DNA of 32,000 bases from Ideonella sp. (GTDB lineage Bacteria > Pseudomonadota > Gammaproteobacteria > Burkholderiales > Burkholderiaceae_C): NCBI GenBank assembly GCA_015075165.1, contig JABTUY010000002.1, forward strand, positions 875,868-907,867, read 5' to 3'. A program made the translations under genes and the position numbers. This document shows positions 1 to 26,290 of the stretch, piece after piece (position 1 is the first letter of the stretch; every line of letters starts with the position of its first letter). Under the pieces are notes generated by a model. The model was given only the letters and a program-made list of their open reading frames with translations, did no database searches and had not been told where the DNA came from.

Positions 1-1001
1 GCACCTCGACGCCCAAGCACTGGACCGGCGAGCCGCATGCCACGGTGCAGCTGCGGCTCGATTTCGACGGCGGCGTCACGCTGCTCACCGGCGCGGCCGA
101 CATCGGGCAGGGCTCGAACACGATGGCCGCGCAGTGTGCCGCCGAGGTGCTCGACGTTGCGCTCGCGCGCATCCGCGTGATCTCGGCCGACAGCGCCGTG
201 ACGCCCAAGGACAACGGCAGCTACTCGTCGCGCGTGACCTTCATGGTCGGCCGCGCGACGATCGCTGCCGCCACCGAGCTGCGCGAGCTGCTGCGCAAGG
301 CGGCGGCCGGCCGGCTCGAGGCCGACGCGGCCGACATCGAGGTGCGCGACGAGATGTTCTGCGTGCGCGGCACCGACCACGGCCTGAGCTGGATCGAGAC
401 GGTGCGCGCGGCGATGGTCAACAGCGGCGCCGTGACGGTCAAGGGCACCTACACCTGCCCGATCGAGTTCCAGGGCGACAAGAAGATCCGCGGCAGCGCG
501 ATCGGCGCCACGATGGGCTTCTGCTACGCGGCGCAGGTGGTCGAGGCGTCGGTCGACGAGCTCACCGGCAAGGTCACGGCGCACAAGGTGTGGGTGGCGG
601 TGGACGTCGGCCGCGCGCTCAACCCGCTGGCCGTCGAGGGCCAGACACAGGGCGGCGTGTGGATGGGCATGGGCCAGGCGCTGTCGGAGGCGACCGAGTA
701 CGACGACGGCCGCATGCTGCACGGCAACCTGCTCGACTACCGCGTGCCGACCATCGTCGAGAGCCCCGATATCGAGGTGCTGATCGTCGAGAGCGTCGAC
801 CCGAACGGACCGTTCGGTGCCAAGGAGGCATCCGAGGGCATGCTCGCGGGCTTCCTGCCGGCGCTGCGCGAGGCGGTGCAGGAGGCCGCCGGCGTCAGCT
901 GCGACGTGTTTCCGCTCAGCCCCGATCGCATCGTCGAGCTGCTCGACAAGCGCGACGCAGCGAAGAAGGTGCCCGCGCGCCGCGCCGAGGAGGTTCGATG
1001 A
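1..1001 (+). CDS. hcrA: 4-hydroxybenzoyl-CoA reductase alpha (molybdopterin) subunit, C-terminal part; the gene starts upstream of the window
   Basis: The frame of ORF 45..1001 is open back to base 3 (TSTPKHWTGEPHAT...). It shows xanthine-dehydrogenase-family Mo-cofactor domain motifs (GAADIGQGS, VDVGRALNP, GQTQGGVWMGMG, PFGAKEASE). Its stop overlaps the hcrB start (ATGA at 998-1001). Calling it Hcr rather than a generic Mo-hydroxylase rests on the diagnostic neighbour hcrB and the phenol-pathway context. Confidence 0.8.
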   Translation, partial: TSTPKHWTGEPHATVQLRLDFDGGVTLLTGAADIGQGSNTMAAQCAAEVLDVALARIRVISADSAVTPKDNGSYSSRVTFMVGRATIAAATELRELLRKAAAGRLEADAADIEVRDEMFCVRGTDHGLSWIETVRAAMVNSGAVTVKGTYTCPIEFQGDKKIRGSAIGATMGFCYAAQVVEASVDELTGKVTAHKVWVAVDVGRALNPLAVEGQTQGGVWMGMGQALSEATEYDDGRMLHGNLLDYRVPTIVESPDIEVLIVESVDPNGPFGAKEASEGMLAGFLPALREAVQEAAGVSCDVFPLSPDRIVELLDKRDAAKKVPARRAEEVR

Positions 1002-1972
1002 ACGCGTTGCACGAATTGCGCACCGTGCGCCCGGCGAGCGTCGACGACGCGACGCGCGCGCTGGTCGAAGGCGGCGCGCAGCCGCTGGCCGGCGGTACCG
1101 ACCTGCTGCCCAACCTGCGCCGCGGCATCGGCACGCCGCGCACGCTGGTCGACCTGACCGCCGTGGCGGCGCTCGACACCATCGCGCCGCTGCCCGACGG
1201 CAGCGTGCGCCTGGGCGCCGCGACCACGCTGGCCGCGCTGGCGCGTGATGCCGCGGTGTGTGCCGGCTGGCCGGTGTTGGCCAAGGCCGCCGGCCTGGTT
1301 GCCGGCCCGACGCACCGCGAGGCCGCCACGCTCGGCGGCAACCTGTGCCAGGACACGCGCTGCGTGTTCTACAACCAGAGCGACTGGTGGCGTGCCGGCA
1401 ATGGCTACTGCCTGAAGTACCGCGGCGACAAATGCCATGTGGTCGTCAAGAGCGACCGCTGCTATGCCACCTACCACGGCGACGTGGCGCCGGCGCTGAT
1501 CGTGCTCGACGCGCGCGCCGAGATCGCCGGCCCCGGCGGCGCGCGCACGCTGCCGCTGGCGGCGCTGTTCGTCGAGGACGGCAAGGCGCGGCTGACGCTC
1601 GCGGCCGGCGAGTGGCTGACGCGAATCGTCGTGCCACCGGCCGCCGGCTGGCGCGCCGACTGCGCCAAGGCGCGCGTGCGCGACGCAGTCGACTTCGCGC
1701 TCGCCGGCGCCGCGGTGGCGCTGCGCCGCGACGGCGACCGGATGGCCGGCCTGCGCGTGGCGATCACCGGCACCAACTCGGCGCCGTTGGCCGTGCCGAC
1801 CGGCGACGTCATCGGTCGGCCGTGGGATGCCGATGCCGCGCAGGCGCTGGCCAAGGCGGTGCAGGCCACCGGCAACGTGCTGGCCACCACCGTCGCGCCG
1901 GTGAAGTACCGGCGCCGCATGCTGCAGGCGCTGGTGCGCCGGCTCGTCGACGACCTCTGGAAGCAGCCCTAG
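998..1972 (+). CDS. hcrB: 4-hydroxybenzoyl-CoA reductase beta (FAD) subunit with [4Fe-4S]-binding insertion loop, 324 aa
   Basis: It starts at ATG 998 in the frame of track ORF 134..1972 (MNALHELRTV...). It has a CO-dehydrogenase-type FAD-binding fold (AGGTDLLPNL) plus an inserted Cys loop, CVFYNQSDWWRAGNGYCLKYRGDKCHVVVKSDRC. The cysteines fall at residues 122, 138, 146 and 155, which is the spacing I recall for the Thauera aromatica HcrB [4Fe-4S] ligands. Confidence 0.9.
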   Translation: MNALHELRTVRPASVDDATRALVEGGAQPLAGGTDLLPNLRRGIGTPRTLVDLTAVAALDTIAPLPDGSVRLGAATTLAALARDAAVCAGWPVLAKAAGLVAGPTHREAATLGGNLCQDTRCVFYNQSDWWRAGNGYCLKYRGDKCHVVVKSDRCYATYHGDVAPALIVLDARAEIAGPGGARTLPLAALFVEDGKARLTLAAGEWLTRIVVPPAAGWRADCAKARVRDAVDFALAGAAVALRRDGDRMAGLRVAITGTNSAPLAVPTGDVIGRPWDADAAQALAKAVQATGNVLATTVAPVKYRRRMLQALVRRLVDDLWKQP

Positions 1973-1993
1973 GGCCAGCAAAGGGAAGACCGC

Positions 1994-4333
1994 ATGACCC
2001 GCATCGCGCGCCGCGAACAGTTCTCGCCGCAGACCTTTCTGTGGGAGATCGACGCACCCGATGTCGCCGAGGCCGCCGAGGCCGGCCACTTCGTGATGCT
2101 GCGCCTGGACGACGCCGGCGAGCGCATTCCGCTCACCGTGGCCGACTACGACCGCACGCGCGGCACCATCACCGTGGTGGTGCAGTCGCTCGGCCGCACC
2201 ACGCGCGAGATGCGCGACAACTACCGCGAGGGCGACGAGTTCGCCGATTTCGTCGGCCCGCTCGGCCTGCCGCAGCACATCGACAAGGTGGGCCACGTCG
2301 TGCTGGTGGGCGGCGGGCTCGGTGTGGCGCCGGTGTTCCCGCAGCTGCGCGCGTTCAAGCAGGCCGGCAACCGCACCACCTGCATCGTCGGCTTTCGCAG
2401 CGCCGAGCTGGTGTTCTGGGACGACAAGCTGCGCGAGTTCGCCGACGAGCTGATCATCTGCACCGACGACGGCAGCAGCGGCCGCCCCGGGTTCGTCACC
2501 GGCGCGCTGCAGGCGCTGCTCGAGCGCGAGCGGCCCGACCTGGTGGTGGCGATCGGCCCGATGCCGATGATGCAGGCCTGCACCGAGACCACGCGCCCGT
2601 TCGGCGTGCCGACCAAGGTGTCGCTGAACACCATCATGGTCGACGGCACCGGCATGTGCGGCTCGTGCCGCGTCACGGTGGGCGGCGAGGTCAAGTTCGC
2701 CTGCGTCGACGGCCCCGATTTCGACGCGCACCAGATCGACTTCAAGGAGCTGCTGGCGCGGCAGAAGCGCTTCAAGGCGCAGGAGCAGCAGGCCAACGCC
2801 GACCTCGATCACGTGTGCAGCCTCGAAGAGCTGCTGGTCAAGCAGGGCAAGCGCACCTACAAGAAATACTCGGCGCTCGAGCGCACGCAGGTGCCGATGC
2901 CCGAGCGCGAGCCGGCCGAGCGCGCGCAGACCTTCGACGAGGTGAACCTGGGCTACGACTGGGCCGCCGCGCTGCGCGAATCCGAGCGCTGCATCCAGTG
3001 CCTGAAGCCCACCTGCATCGAAGGCTGCCCGGTGCGCATCGACATCCCGCGCTTCATCCGCCACCTGATGCTGCGTGACGTGGAGGGCGCGGTCGACGCC
3101 ATCCACGATTCGAGCCCGTTCCCGTCGGTGTGCGGCCGCGTCTGCCCGCAAGAGAGCCAGTGCGAGGCGCAGTGCGTGCTGGTCAAGGCCAAGATGCAGC
3201 CGGTGGCGATCGGCCGGCTCGAGCGTTTCGTGGGCGACCATGCGGCACAGCGCCCGGTGGCGCCGGTGCAGTTCGAGCGCGACGCCGGGCGCGTGGCGAT
3301 CGTCGGCTCGGGCCCCGGCGGCCTCGCGTGCGCGGCCGACCTGATCAAACTCGGCGTCGAAGTCACCGTGTACGAGGCGCTGCACGTCGTCGGCGGCGTG
3401 CTGCGCTACGGCATCCCGGCGTTCCGCCTGCCGCGCGACATCATCGACCGCGAGGTCAACCGCCTGCGCGACGCCGGCGTGAAGTTCGAGACCAACAAGG
3501 TCATCGGCAAGACGTTCACGATCGACCGGTTGACCGGTGCGATGGGGTTCGACGCCGTGTTCGTCGCCGCCGGCGCCGGCGCGCCGTCGTTCCTCGGCAT
3601 TCCGGGCGAATCGGCCGGCCAGGTCTATTCGGCCAACGAATTCCTGACGCGCGTGAACCTGATGGGCGGCGACCGCTTCCCGTACCGCGACACGCCGGTG
3701 GGCGCCGGCCAGCGCGTGATCGTGATCGGCGCCGGCAACACCGCGATGGACTGCCTGCGCACCGCGCGCCGGCTCGGCGCGGCCGAGGTGCGCTGCGTCT
3801 ACCGCCGCTCCGAGGCCGAGGCACCGGCGCGCGTGGAGGAGCTGCGCCACGCCAAGGAGGAGGGCGTGGTGTTCTCGTTTCTGCATGGGCCGTCGGCCGT
3901 GCTGCTCGACGACGCCGGCGACGTGCGCGGCCTGCGCGCGCAGCGCATGACGCTCGGCGAGCCCGACGCGCGTGGCCGCCGCTCGCCGGTGCCGGTGGAG
4001 GGCGACTTCGTCGAGTGGCCGTGCGACACCGTGATCTACGCGCTCGGCACCAAGGCCAACCCGATCGTCGGCCGCTCCACGCCGGGCCTGGCGCTCGACC
4101 GCCGCGGCTACATCGCGGCCGACGACACCACGCAGGCCACGTCGCTGCGCGGCGTGTTTGCCGGCGGCGACATCGTGACCGGCGGCGCCACCGTGATCCT
4201 GGCGATGGCCGCCGGCCGCCGCGCCGCGCGCGCGATCGGCGCCTGGCTGCACGGCGGTCGCGCCGACTGGCCGCCGTCGCCCGAGCAGGTGACGGCGTTC
4301 GAACCGCCGCAGCCGACCATCGTTGCGCCATGA
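1994..4333 (+). CDS. Fused NfnA-like (FAD/[2Fe-2S], PyrK-type) plus NfnB/GltD-like (2x[4Fe-4S], FAD, NAD(P)H) oxidoreductase, 779 aa
   Basis: It starts at ATG 1994 with AAGGGAAG upstream. The N-terminal ~280 aa are colinear with NfnA/sulfide dehydrogenase beta (GERIPLTVADYD, GGGLGVAP, IMVDGTGMCGSCRVTVGGEVKFACVDGPDFD). The C-terminal ~470 aa resemble the glutamate synthase small chain/NfnB (CIQCLKPTCIEGCP, CGRVCPQESQCEAQC, VAIVGSGPGGLACA, VIVIGAGNTAMDC). It is a single uninterrupted ORF. Confidence 0.85.
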   Translation: MTRIARREQFSPQTFLWEIDAPDVAEAAEAGHFVMLRLDDAGERIPLTVADYDRTRGTITVVVQSLGRTTREMRDNYREGDEFADFVGPLGLPQHIDKVGHVVLVGGGLGVAPVFPQLRAFKQAGNRTTCIVGFRSAELVFWDDKLREFADELIICTDDGSSGRPGFVTGALQALLERERPDLVVAIGPMPMMQACTETTRPFGVPTKVSLNTIMVDGTGMCGSCRVTVGGEVKFACVDGPDFDAHQIDFKELLARQKRFKAQEQQANADLDHVCSLEELLVKQGKRTYKKYSALERTQVPMPEREPAERAQTFDEVNLGYDWAAALRESERCIQCLKPTCIEGCPVRIDIPRFIRHLMLRDVEGAVDAIHDSSPFPSVCGRVCPQESQCEAQCVLVKAKMQPVAIGRLERFVGDHAAQRPVAPVQFERDAGRVAIVGSGPGGLACAADLIKLGVEVTVYEALHVVGGVLRYGIPAFRLPRDIIDREVNRLRDAGVKFETNKVIGKTFTIDRLTGAMGFDAVFVAAGAGAPSFLGIPGESAGQVYSANEFLTRVNLMGGDRFPYRDTPVGAGQRVIVIGAGNTAMDCLRTARRLGAAEVRCVYRRSEAEAPARVEELRHAKEEGVVFSFLHGPSAVLLDDAGDVRGLRAQRMTLGEPDARGRRSPVPVEGDFVEWPCDTVIYALGTKANPIVGRSTPGLALDRRGYIAADDTTQATSLRGVFAGGDIVTGGATVILAMAAGRRAARAIGAWLHGGRADWPPSPEQVTAFEPPQPTIVAP

Positions 4334-4361
4334 TGGCGCAGCGCCCACGAGGAGCCGCCCG

Positions 4362-6497
4362 ATGATGCTGTGCCCCAAGTGCCACCAGCCGCTGGCCGAC
4401 GAAGACGACGAGCCCTACATCTGCTGTGCCGGCGCGCCGATGCAGTGGCACTGCACCGGTTGCGGCAAGGTCAGCGAGGGCTTCGCGTTTCCGTATGGCC
4501 GCTGCCCGCTGTGCGCCGGTGCGCTCGAGTTGTACGGCGAGCAGCCGGCGATCGCGCACGATGAAGCCGCGTCGCTCGCTGCGGTGCGCACCGCGTTCGA
4601 GATCGAGCTCGGTGGCCGCGCGTTCTATCAGCGCGCCGCGGTGGCCTGCGACGACCCCGAGCTGCGCGCGCTGTTCGGCCGCTTCGCGGTGATGGAAGGC
4701 GAGCACATGGAGACGCTGGCGCGTCGCTATCACCTCGATCTGCCCGATCCGTCGCCGCAGCTCCACCTGGAGACTGCGGCGGTCTATGTCGGCACCGGCG
4801 AGGCGCCGCGCGACGCGGCAGGCTTGTTCAAGGTGGCCATCGGCCTCGAGAAGCGCGCGGTGGCGTTCTTCAGCGAGCGCGCCGGCCGCTGCGCGCCCGG
4901 CTCGGCCGAGCACCGGCTGTATGACGAACTGGCCGCCGAGGAGCGCGAGCACGCCAACATCCTGAGCACCGAGTTCGCGCGCTGGCGCGATCGCATGCCC
5001 GGCCTGTTCGGTGCGGCGCCGCGCCCCGCGTCATCACCCGACGCCGCGCCGCTCAACGCCGCCGAGCTGCTGCTGGCGGGGCACGACGACGACCGCATCG
5101 CGATCGAGTGCGGCGACGAGCGGCTCACCTACGCCGAGCTGCGCGACCGCGTGGCGCGCGCTGCCGCGGTCTGGCGTGCGAAAGGCCTGCGCCCGGGCGA
5201 TCGCGTGGCGGTCAAGCTGCCCGACGGGCTCGACTGGGTCGTCTGCTGGCTCGGCACCATCTGGGCCGGCGGTGTTGCGGTGGGCGTGAACCCGCGCGTG
5301 CCGGCACCCGAGTGGCACTACATCCTCGACGAGGCCGGCTTCAACGTCATCGTCGCCGAGTCCGATGCCGACACGCCCGAGCCGTGGCGCTCGCGCGTGC
5401 ACACGCTGGCCGATGGCCGCCACGCGGTGGCGGCGGCGCAGCCGGTGGCACCGGCGCAGGTCGACCCCGACACGCCAGCGTTCTGGCTGCACACCTCGGG
5501 CACGTCGGGCAAACCGAAGGCGGTGGTGCATGCGCACCGCTGCGTGCGCGAGGTGGGCCGCATCTCGGCCGAGCGCATGGGCATCCGCGCGAGCGACCGG
5601 CTGTACGCCAGCTCGAAGCTGTTCTTCGCCTACCCGCTGACCAACCTGCTGCTGGCCGGCCTGCGCATCGGCGCCACGCTGATCGTCGACCCGCAGTGGC
5701 CAACTCCGGAGTCGGTGGCCACTGCGGTGACCACGCGCCGCCCGAGCGTGCTGTTCAGCGTGCCGTCGCTGTACCGCACGCTGCTGCACGATGGCCGCGC
5801 GCGCGCGATCGCCGAGGCCGGCGTGCGCGTGTGCATCTCCGCTGGCGAGGCGCTGCCGGCCAGCCTGCGCCAGGCCTGGCGCGAGGCCACCGGGTTGCCG
5901 ATGATCGACGGCTACGGCGCCTCCGAGGTGCTGGTGCTGGTGCTCACCGCGGTCGACGGCGACGACGCGCTGTGCCTGTCGCCGGGCACGCAGGCCGAGC
6001 CGCTCGATGCCGCCGCGGCCGCCGCCGGCACGCCAACGCGGCTGTTGATCAGCAGCCCGATGCAGGCGCTGGGCTACCTCGACCGCCCGGCCGCGCAGGC
6101 CGACAGCTTCCGCGACGGGCGCTTCTGCCCGGCCGACCTGTTCGTGCCCACGGCCACCGGTGGCTGGCGCTTCGCCGGCCGCGAGGATTCGATGGTCAAG
6201 GTCAAGGGCCGCTGGGTGAACCTGGTCGATCTCGAGGAGCGCCTCGGCGCCGGCGTGCCCGGCCTGCGCGAGGGCGCAGCGGTGCTGATGCCCGATGCCG
6301 ACGGCATGGGCACGGTGGCGTACTTCTACGCCGCCGGCGCGAGCGATGCGGCGGTGAAGGCCGAACTCGAACGCCGCATCGCCGCGCTGCCGCCGTACCA
6401 GCGCCCGACGCGGCTGCAAGCGATCGACGCGCTGCCACGCACGGCCACCGGCAAGCTGCTGCGGCGCAAGCTGCTGGAGGGGCAAGGGGCGGGGTGA
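4362..6497 (+). CDS. Three-domain protein, 711 aa: N-terminal Cys-rich Zn-ribbon/rubredoxin-like domain, ferritin-like diiron (rubrerythrin-type) domain, and C-terminal benzoate/4-hydroxybenzoate-CoA ligase family adenylate-forming domain
   Basis: It starts at ATG 4362 with GGAG at 4351-4354. Cys motifs are CPKC, CC, CTGC and CPLC. The diiron ligand pattern E...ExxH...E...ExxH is present (EIELGGRAFY, MEGEHMETL, GLEKRAVAFF, AEEREHANIL). The AMP-binding core includes TSGTSGKPKAVVH, SKLFFAYPLTN, DGYGASE and PRTATGKLLRRKL. Pathway context points to 4-hydroxybenzoate-CoA ligase, but substrate specificity is not provable from sequence. Confidence 0.85.
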   Translation: MMLCPKCHQPLADEDDEPYICCAGAPMQWHCTGCGKVSEGFAFPYGRCPLCAGALELYGEQPAIAHDEAASLAAVRTAFEIELGGRAFYQRAAVACDDPELRALFGRFAVMEGEHMETLARRYHLDLPDPSPQLHLETAAVYVGTGEAPRDAAGLFKVAIGLEKRAVAFFSERAGRCAPGSAEHRLYDELAAEEREHANILSTEFARWRDRMPGLFGAAPRPASSPDAAPLNAAELLLAGHDDDRIAIECGDERLTYAELRDRVARAAAVWRAKGLRPGDRVAVKLPDGLDWVVCWLGTIWAGGVAVGVNPRVPAPEWHYILDEAGFNVIVAESDADTPEPWRSRVHTLADGRHAVAAAQPVAPAQVDPDTPAFWLHTSGTSGKPKAVVHAHRCVREVGRISAERMGIRASDRLYASSKLFFAYPLTNLLLAGLRIGATLIVDPQWPTPESVATAVTTRRPSVLFSVPSLYRTLLHDGRARAIAEAGVRVCISAGEALPASLRQAWREATGLPMIDGYGASEVLVLVLTAVDGDDALCLSPGTQAEPLDAAAAAAGTPTRLLISSPMQALGYLDRPAAQADSFRDGRFCPADLFVPTATGGWRFAGREDSMVKVKGRWVNLVDLEERLGAGVPGLREGAAVLMPDADGMGTVAYFYAAGASDAAVKAELERRIAALPPYQRPTRLQAIDALPRTATGKLLRRKLLEGQGAG

Positions 6498-25485: not shown

Positions 25486-25749
25486 GTGAACACCCGCCGC
25501 TGGACCGACGCAGAAGCCGAGCACATCGACGTGCGCGGCCTCTCGCCGCCGCAACCGCTGGTGGAGATCGTGCGCCTGCTCGAGGAGATCACGGCGTCGA
25601 AGCGGCCGCGGGTGGTGATCGCGCACCTCGATCGCGACCCGACGATGCTGTACCCCGAGCTCGCGCAGCGCGGCTGGACGGCGCAGCGCCTGCCGTCGGC
25701 CGACGAGGGTGTACAGCTGCGGCTGGTGCACGAAGGCGCCGACGAATGA
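25486..25749 (+). CDS. DUF2249-like small protein (TusA/SirA-like fold), 87 aa
   Basis: It starts at GTG 25486 with AGGAG 8 nt upstream; only the 3' end of track ORF 24931..25749 is credible. The pattern IDVRGLSPPQPLVEIVRLLEEI...VVIAHLDRDPTMLYPELAQRGW fits the DUF2249 signature (D.RGL.PP.P...). Confidence 0.65.
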   Translation: MNTRRWTDAEAEHIDVRGLSPPQPLVEIVRLLEEITASKRPRVVIAHLDRDPTMLYPELAQRGWTAQRLPSADEGVQLRLVHEGADE

Positions 25750-25798
25750 TCTCGCGCCGACTTCCCATTCGATGACGACCGAACTGAGGGCCAACGCC

Positions 25799-26290
25799 AT
25801 GGACTACACACTGCCGCTGTTCCTCGCCCATGCCATCGCGCTCGAGCGCGAGGCGGCCGAGCGCTACCACGAACTGGCCGACATGATGGAGGCGCATCGC
25901 AACGACGAGGTAGCCGCGCTGTTCCGCGACATGGTGCGCTACTCGCGTCTGCACCACGACTCGATCGTCGAGCGCGCGGCCGGCGTCACGCTGCCTTCGC
26001 TGGGCCCCTGGGACTACGCCTGGCGCTACCCGCCCGAGGCGGCGGGCGAGGAGACGTTCGACCCCGCGCTCAACGCCTACGACGCGCTGCGCTACGCGCG
26101 CGAGAACGAGGCGCGTGCGATGCAGTACTACAGCGACGTCGGCCTCAACTCGAGCGACCCCGAGGTGCGGCGCCTGGCCGCCGAATTCGCCGCCGAGGAG
26201 ACCGAGCACGTCGCCGCGGTCGACGATTGGTTGTCGCGCACCGCGCGGCCGGCGGCGCCGTGGGCCGCCGACCCGCATGTCGACCGCTAG
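25799..26290 (+). CDS. Ferritin-like/rubrerythrin-like four-helix-bundle protein, 163 aa
   Basis: It starts at ATG 25799 with GAGGG 8 nt upstream. Helix signatures are ALEREAAERYHEL, RENEARAMQYY and AEETEHVAAV (ExxH). The second-helix ExxH appears degenerate (VRYSRLHH). Confidence 0.7.
   Translation: MDYTLPLFLAHAIALEREAAERYHELADMMEAHRNDEVAALFRDMVRYSRLHHDSIVERAAGVTLPSLGPWDYAWRYPPEAAGEETFDPALNAYDALRYARENEARAMQYYSDVGLNSSDPEVRRLAAEFAAEETEHVAAVDDWLSRTARPAAPWAADPHVDR

Follow-up and report, generated by a model that had tools for sequence, protein, structure and literature searches.

The stretch analysed here, 32,000 nucleotides of contig JABTUY010000002.1 from the Ideonella sp. assembly GCA_015075165.1 (the window), encodes a single-chain relative of the electron-bifurcating transhydrogenase Nfn directly behind the genes of a 4-hydroxybenzoyl-CoA reductase, or 4-HBCR for short. 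The protein belongs to the clade of AadN, a fused Nfn homologue of Rhodopseudomonas palustris, and its genome also carries KorAB, the 2-oxoglutarate:ferredoxin oxidoreductase known from Thauera aromatica. On balance we favour a role in which the enzyme, with NADPH as donor and NAD+ as a second, high-potential acceptor, would supply low-potential electrons via ferredoxin to HcrB, the beta subunit of 4-HBCR, and to benzoyl-CoA reductase (BCR), beside KorAB. The original prediction for this locus had observed the fused enzyme correctly; its interpretation is partly supported and mostly amounts to a rediscovery of AadN, and it missed the zinc-ribbon and di-iron tail that is usual in this family and that, in the window, resides on the downstream CoA ligase.

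Three aspects of the locus are new: the operon-embedded, tail-less Burkholderiales variant of Nfn, its constant company with KorAB in the window's family, and the predicted di-iron tail which the AadN family normally carries.

Architecture and family placement of the fused Nfn protein

The nfn open reading frame (ORF) is a real gene, since its position-specific GC contents (0.95 at third and 0.48 at second codon positions) are as expected for a genome of about 70% GC. Both Nfn halves were predicted to be united in one ORF of 779 residues, and structural matches bear this out: residues 3-265 align with NfnA of Thermotoga maritima (4ylf_A, E 5e-74) and with the small subunit of Pyrococcus furiosus NfnI (5jca_S, E 5e-93), and residues 298-759 with NfnB (4ylf_B, E 7e-143) and the NfnI large subunit (5jca_L, E 3e-134). 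Pfam recognises a DHODB_Fe-S_bind domain ([2Fe-2S], PyrK/NfnA type) at 212-248, a Fer4_20 domain of the two-cluster type found in dihydropyrimidine dehydrogenase (DPD) at 310-419, and Pyr_redox_2 at 433-741. The gene is single-copy in the genome. That Nfn enzymes are normally two-subunit proteins, as had been stated, needs qualification: the halves are indeed fused here, but fused Nfn proteins had already been catalogued in 2019 as 'pattern B' (PMC6405883).

Definitions of the cofactor motifs were taken from the same source (PMC6405883), and the comparison with Thermotoga and Pyrococcus Nfn that had been proposed as a check found all cluster and flavin motifs in place. The NfnA-like half carries the a-FAD strand motif ERxPxT as ERIPLT (43-48), the NAD-site motif GGGxGxAP as GGGLGVAP (106-113) and an exact match to the [2Fe-2S] motif DGTGMCGxCRx10CV at residues 217-238 (DGTGMCGSCR-x10-CV), with D217, an unusual Asp ligand, C222, C225 and C237 as ligands. 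In the NfnB-like half, the [4Fe-4S] motif RCx2Cx4Cx3CPV reads RCIQCLKPTCIEGCPV at 332-347 (ligands C333/C336/C341/C345), and the second, GRVCPQExQCx3C...Gx2ER, reads GRVCPQESQCEAQC...GRLER at 381-411 (motif residues C380/C384/E387/C390/C394). The spacer ahead of Gx2ER has 12 residues rather than 13, a length that varies in P. furiosus NfnI as well. The Rossmann motifs for b-FAD and NADPH are present as GSGPGG (438-443) and GAGNTA (579-584), as are YRRS (603-606), the Arg pair for the NADPH 2'-phosphate, and FRLP (477-480), whose Arg is presumably the flavin N5 arginine. At the level of sequence, every part required for an Nfn-type electron path is present.

AadN (RPA0678) was described in R. 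palustris as a fused Nfn homologue adjoining the hba genes (Lewis, Sarne & Fixen, mBio 2023; PMC9973337). Over residues 1-769, our protein shares 70% identity with WP_012494392.1 of R. palustris TIE-1, which falls into one 90% cluster together with ABD86576.1 of strain BisB18 and three 994-residue proteins from our family-level genome sample. Both strains are reported to possess AadN at more than 90% identity (PMC9973337), and we infer that AadN itself is a member of this cluster. An unrooted tree of 61 Nfn sequences resolved three well-supported clans, from which the number of fusion events is not readable: fused forms of Clostridium, Bacteroidota and Syntrophorhabdaceae; proteobacterial split NfnAB; and the AadN type. 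The latter clade (SH-aLRT 100) comprises 29 members, including the window Nfn and the Rhodopseudomonas proteins; identity to the window Nfn is 68-90% inside this clade and at most 57% outside.

Two NCBIfam models describe related proteins, and the window Nfn scores below the cut-off of both. On PRK12775 (NF009413; 'putative trifunctional 2-polyprenylphenol hydroxylase/glutamate synthase subunit beta/ferritin domain-containing protein'), the model to which the tripartite Rhodopseudomonas proteins belong, it reaches 1395 bits against an equivalog cut-off of 1895, covering model positions 1-775 of 1006, and the tail part of the model finds no match in the ORF. On PRK12778, the model for pattern B Nfn, it reaches 994 bits against 1103.

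A side observation concerns the published AadN suppressor change C38W, which, speculatively, may lie outside the mature protein. Counted from the conserved Met start, proteins of the Rhodopseudomonas cluster lack any Cys ahead of residue 156. In longer database versions (1007 and 1022 residues), the sequence ...ICAVTM or ...ICAVNM places a Cys four codons in front of the conserved Met; with a 41-residue extension, this Cys would be residue 38 and would fall in the ribosome-binding region.

Operon context and genomic company

Nfn is packed into the hcr operon as had been predicted, and the gaps of 21 bp to hcrB and 28 bp to the ligase gene are exact, as the positions of stop and start codons show (Table 1). 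The gene order is tight throughout: a gene for a PaaK-like CoA ligase overlaps hcrC, hcrA overlaps hcrC by ATGA, the start of hcrB overlaps the hcrA stop by 4 bp (ATGA), and hcrB (stop codon at 1970-1972), nfn and the ligase gene follow. The spacer between hcrB and nfn leaves no room for a terminator, and none was predicted on the + strand from hcrA through the end of the ligase gene. With such short spacers, overlapping upstream genes and no predicted terminator, nfn is probably co-transcribed with hcrCAB and the CoA ligase, which forms part of our best explanation of the locus.

The genes upstream of nfn are, judging from profile and structure matches, true 4-HBCR genes. HcrA (G000:C12:874571-876811) scores 1273.6 bits on TIGR03194 (cut-off 994.55), and HcrB aligns without gaps to the T. 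aromatica subunit 1rm6_B (E 6e-133). The extra loop of HcrB retains Cys122, 138, 146 and 155 as in 1rm6_B; Cys117 lies in the same loop, which houses the additional [4Fe-4S] cluster. The title of Unciuleac et al. 2004, as given in PMC12771579, links the extra [4Fe-4S] cluster of 4-HBCR to 'inverted' electron flow.

Table 1. Features around the fused nfn gene (coordinates refer to the window).
Feature	Position	Strand	Evidence or remark
hcrA, 3' part (4-HBCR alpha subunit)	3..1001	+	Pfam MoCoBD_2; start upstream of window
hcrB (4-HBCR beta subunit, FAD and extra [4Fe-4S] loop)	998..1972	+	TIGR03195, 464 bits (cut-off 404)
Spacer hcrB-nfn, 21 bp	1973..1993	+	Shine-Dalgarno-like AAGGGAAG before nfn ATG
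Fused nfn gene (AadN-type, bipartite form), 779 residues	1994..4333	+	stop at 4331-4333
NfnA-like module, residues 1-265	1994..2788	+	aligned to 5jca_S, 4ylf_A
Linker, residues 266-300	2789..2893	+	conserved within clade, e.g. C275, GKRTYKKY 285-292 (invariant alignment columns)
NfnB-like module, residues 301-760	2894..4273	+	alignment to NfnB/NfnI large subunit; motifs
Spacer nfn-ligase, 28 bp	4334..4361	+	GAGGAG ribosome-binding site ahead of ligase ATG at 4362
Detached AadN-family tail, N-terminus of ligase ORF	4362..5009	+	PRK12775 positions 798-1005, 272 bits
Aromatic-acid CoA ligase domain	5091..6497	+	Pfam AMP-binding; shares ORF (4362-6497) with tail module

The wider surroundings form one large anaerobic aromatic region that comprises the window and its upstream flank. 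The Thauera-type bcrCBAD, dch, oah and korAB genes are found 18-26 kb upstream, together with a gene for a 2[4Fe-4S] ferredoxin directly after bcrD; the best PDB match of this ferredoxin is 1rgv (E 2e-32), which we take to be that of T. aromatica. The window itself holds no ferredoxin-type CxxCxxCxxxCP motif in any frame, as the original prediction had noted; its guess that such a gene might lie upstream with hcrC was right about the direction, and hcrC is indeed found just upstream of the window, but the ferredoxin is encoded beside bcrD. Closer to hcrC, the order is an ABC transporter, a dimethyl sulfoxide (DMSO)-reductase-family molybdoenzyme with its 4Fe-4S subunit, and the PaaK-like CoA ligase. 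Downstream of the nfn-linked ligase, whose domain matches the benzoate-CoA ligase family and HbdA models below their cut-offs, follow a XylR-type sigma-54 activator and genes for phenylphosphate synthase and carboxylase.

Some further features of this genome stand apart. The set of DMSO-reductase-family molybdoenzyme, 4Fe-4S subunit and PaaK-like CoA ligase preceding hcrC (L002:7044-11867 on G000:C12) recurs at 69-88% identity upstream of hcr or nfn in four other loci (L011, L012, L013, L015). A second, four-gene BCR-like set of two HGD-D and two BcrAD_BadFG genes (L010; G000:C12:668685-672754) adjoins a hemerythrin gene and a methionyl-tRNA synthetase gene, with no aromatic-pathway genes among the scanned neighbours; a bzdV-like partner, sought at C12:668-673 kb, was not found there. 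The window's GC content of about 70% gives rise to long open frames on either strand, and we rejected an antisense ORF of 1213 codons spanning hcrB and nfn (737-4378, - strand) as a by-product of high GC, as it has no coding codon bias.

Nfn neighbourhoods in other genomes were examined by tblastn with the window genome's own proteins, and 131 neighbour ORFs were pooled for a Pfam scan. They show nfn embedded in hcrCAB in several Burkholderiales genera: hcrB stands directly upstream of nfn in the window, in G117 (89% identity), in G052 (77%) and in the loci L011, L013 and L015. In three genomes of the family-level sample that yielded the 994-residue proteins, nfn lies 2-4 kb from hcrA-type genes and 15-20 kb from bcrB; G294 and G162 belong to the 90% cluster of Rhodopseudomonas, and the third genome is G261.

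Among 151 genomes of the window's family, Nfn, the 4-HBCR alpha subunit and BcrB (the latter two counted only above family cut-offs) are confined to one and the same set of six genomes; the remaining 145, one of them unpublished (G145), have none of the three. The six represent six genera that are nevertheless kin, so that this co-occurrence is a pattern rather than a statistic; Nfn is of the fused AadN type in four of them and split in two. All five Nfn-bearing genomes other than the window's have a KorA orthologue close to bcrB. Nfn and KorAB thus go together in this family, unlike in R. palustris, whose strains carry either aadN or korAB (PMC9973337). The original treatment of Nfn as an alternative to the Thauera-type 2-oxoglutarate route has to be abandoned: with korAB, bcrCBAD and the ferredoxin gene encoded 18-26 kb upstream, Nfn adds to this route.

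In a sample of 251 genomes of an alphaproteobacterial family, the AadN type was found in eight, five of which also have BcrB and six HcrA; over the whole sample, BcrB passes its family cut-off in 28 genomes and HcrA in 37. Ten further genomes with clade members, most of them metagenome-assembled genomes in which a missing match does not show absence, gave HGD-D/BCR-type genes in three cases, all betaproteobacterial, and a 4-HBCR alpha subunit above cut-off in two of the five tested. As a separate observation, an alphaproteobacterial family (that of G156; L100, L102-L112, L114) has split nfnAB genes at 50-58% identity to the window Nfn, and in 12 of its 14 loci a gene for a KorA-like 2-oxoacid:ferredoxin oxidoreductase stands directly beside them, in what looks like a conserved NfnAB-KorAB unit.

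The detached zinc-ribbon and di-iron tail

The part of PRK12775 that is missing from the window Nfn is found on the next gene, where residues 3-215 of the ligase ORF match model positions 798-1005. This module of about 215 residues, joined to the AMP-binding domain by a Pro/Ala-rich linker, shares 55% identity (E 3e-71) with the TIE-1 protein's residues 786-993 and passes the Pfam Rubrerythrin cut-off (27.9 bits against 22.8). Eight invariant Cys are arranged in zinc-ribbon or rubredoxin-like pairs, and all six canonical di-iron ligands (E82, E112, H115, E163, E194, H197) are invariant.

Within the AadN-type clade the tail occurs in three forms: C-terminal on Nfn, as in Rhodopseudomonas, Rhodospirillaceae, Myxococcota and Acidimicrobiia; as a separate gene directly downstream of nfn; or fused to the ligase, as in the window and in four other loci (L004, L011, L012, L013), all from Burkholderiales. 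It is the most constant neighbour of nfn in the clade, far more constant than hcr. Tripartite proteins occupy the branches nearest to the clade's root, and those of the Burkholderiales subclade are bipartite, which suggests that the tail became detached in the Burkholderiales lineage. The published description of AadN (PMC9973337) does not include the tail, and full-text searches of one collection of papers gave no relevant match, either to the tripartite family or to a combination of Nfn and rubrerythrin in aromatic degradation. The window also holds, at 25709-26287, a separate rubrerythrin-family ORF of 193 residues (Pfam E 5e-9) among genes for enoyl-CoA hydratase and acyl-CoA dehydrogenase.

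Tentatively, and with rather low confidence, we suggest that the tail could act as a docking, redox or oxygen-scavenging adaptor, which sits on the electron supplier in Rhodopseudomonas, Myxococcota and Acidimicrobiia and on the ligase in Burkholderiales, and that AadN-type Nfn may be a dedicated second ferredoxin route for the extra two electrons of 4-HBCR, parallel to KorAB. If this were true, CoA activation, electron supply and dehydroxylation would be tied together in one physical unit.

Electron supply, rival readings and known systems

In the mechanism that we favour, NADPH would reduce the b-FAD, from where one electron would pass over the [2Fe-2S] cluster and the a-FAD to NAD+, and the other, after crossing both [4Fe-4S] clusters, would reach the Thauera-type 2[4Fe-4S] ferredoxin whose gene lies beside bcrD. 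Once reduced, this ferredoxin could serve BCR as well as HcrB's extra [4Fe-4S] cluster. Per ring, cells growing on phenol or 4-hydroxybenzoate need four low-potential electrons, compared with two on benzoate, and we infer that Nfn, expressed together with hcr, may cover the additional two, with KorAB operating in parallel. For such an uphill reaction to run, the NADPH/NADP+ ratio would have to be high, the NADH/NAD+ ratio would have to be low, and the irreversible reductases would have to exert a pull. A ferredoxin-reducing role stands as the best reading of the fused Nfn that had been proposed as a ferredoxin supplier; this idea had already been published for AadN, which is proposed to reduce the ferredoxin of BCR (PMC9973337).

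Several points weigh against this role. Under standard conditions, reducing ferredoxin costs Nfn about 20 kJ/mol (PMC6405883); bifurcation by AadN has itself been called unproven, and some Nfn homologues do not bifurcate (PMC9973337). The bifurcating activity of the AadN-type clade enzymes is putative. KorAB is encoded next to bcr in six of six family genomes, and an extra supplier is thus not strictly required. The steadiest partner of the clade is the di-iron tail. Moreover, class I BCR genes were not found in seven clade-bearing genomes (G153-G159, mostly incomplete metagenome-assembled genomes), where the neighbours of nfn are unrelated genes, and the pooled Pfam scan revealed no common theme outside the hcr loci. 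Given clade members in genomes where no BCR was found and such heterogeneous neighbours, the basic role of the AadN type is probably not specific to aromatics; the clade as a whole appears to be a general redox module, recruited into aromatic clusters in some lineages.

The main rival explanation has Nfn running the usual way: it would form NADPH from NADH and the reduced ferredoxin that KorAB provides, and would be a redox valve or a source of NADPH for cells on aromatics, not a supplier of electrons. Characterised NfnAB is reported to run this way in vivo, exergonically by about 20 kJ/mol (PMC6405883), and the reading would fit the presence of KorAB beside Nfn in all six family genomes as well as the KorA-like gene next to split nfnAB in 12 of 14 alphaproteobacterial loci. 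Genetic data from R. palustris point the other way: deletion of aadN abolishes growth on benzoate and 4-hydroxybenzoate and leaves growth on cyclohexanecarboxylate intact (PMC9973337), so that ring-reduction substrates are affected specifically, and an AadN variant can feed nitrogenase; both findings argue for ferredoxin reduction. The aadN-or-korAB pattern of R. palustris strains suggests equivalent roles for the two enzymes, and there is no obvious reason for placing an NADPH valve inside hcrCAB. We regard this reading as unlikely.

Rather less probable is a non-bifurcating enzyme resembling P. furiosus NfnII/Xfn, which would use NAD(P)H to reduce ferredoxin, or a different acceptor such as the di-iron tail, without coupling to NAD+. 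Non-bifurcating Nfn homologues exist (PMC9973337, PMC6405883), Xfn (5vj7) is also a strong match, and the third partner may be another one, as the conserved additional module hints. The NfnA module, however, scores 319 bits on NfnI against 185 bits on the Xfn small subunit and lacks the Xfn insertions; the NAD site (GGGxGxAP) is intact, as is the arginine of FRLP.

A slightly smaller chance still must be given to the view that Nfn and the rubrerythrin-like tail constitute an NAD(P)H-dependent peroxide or oxygen reductase, whose task in a facultative anaerobe would be to shield 4-HBCR and BCR, both of them sensitive to oxygen. The rubredoxin-like Cys pattern, the six di-iron ligands and the Rubrerythrin match of the tail would suit such a function, as would its fusion to Nfn in many lineages and its adjoining position in nearly all. 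Yet the Nfn part contains nothing specific to peroxide chemistry, the window's tail is carried by the ligase and not by Nfn, the cultures that showed the R. palustris phenotype were anoxic, and a low-potential bifurcating core would be an odd donor for a high-potential acceptor. The possibility, raised at the outset, of a glutamate-synthase-type or DPD-type reductase is barely credible: relatives are named 'NADPH-dependent glutamate synthase' and TIGR01316 is passed (520 bits, cut-off 472), but GltD (284 bits) and DPD (167 bits) score far below the Nfn structures, no GltB-like or DHOD/DPD catalytic domain was found in the nfn ORF or among its neighbours, and the genome has separate GltD-like genes (36-37% identity).

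The source of low-potential electrons for ring reduction and dehydroxylation in facultative anaerobes is settled only for Thauera, where it is KorAB; for R. palustris, AadN is indicated as this source by genetics only. As the window's locus shows, several Burkholderiales genera have an AadN-type enzyme built firmly into their 4-HBCR operon and possess KorAB as well, and this combination allows a clean test of whether the work is divided between benzoate on the one hand and phenol or 4-hydroxybenzoate on the other. Biochemical work on AadN will have to account for the di-iron module.

Among known systems, AadN is the closest to the window Nfn, with which it shares the clade, all Nfn cofactor motifs and the position beside 4-HBCR genes in an anaerobic aromatic cluster. 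The two differ in that the Rhodopseudomonas proteins of 994 residues carry the zinc-ribbon and di-iron tail that in the window is split off and placed on the next gene, in the location of the window nfn inside the hcrCAB operon, 21 bp after hcrB, and in the presence of KorAB as well as Nfn in the window genome, where R. palustris has one or the other. Characterised two-subunit NfnAB agrees with the window Nfn in both modules and in the motifs for a-FAD, the Asp-ligated [2Fe-2S] cluster, two [4Fe-4S] clusters, b-FAD and NADPH; the window Nfn is distinguished from it by its single polypeptide, a conserved linker of about 35 residues, the associated di-iron module and a physiological direction that is probably reversed. 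With the pattern B Nfn of Clostridium autoethanogenum/ljungdahlii and Bacteroidota it has in common the NfnA-then-NfnB order in a single chain of similar length, but it is only 46-52% identical to these proteins and falls into a separate clade, and no tail module adjoins the pattern B genes in the 63 loci examined. KorAB of T. aromatica, finally, resembles the window Nfn in its presumed task, the regeneration of reduced ferredoxin for BCR and 4-HBCR. Nfn is nevertheless an unrelated enzyme that uses another reductant, and in the window genome it is encoded within the hcr operon, alongside a KorAB whose genes lie next to bcr, dch and oah.

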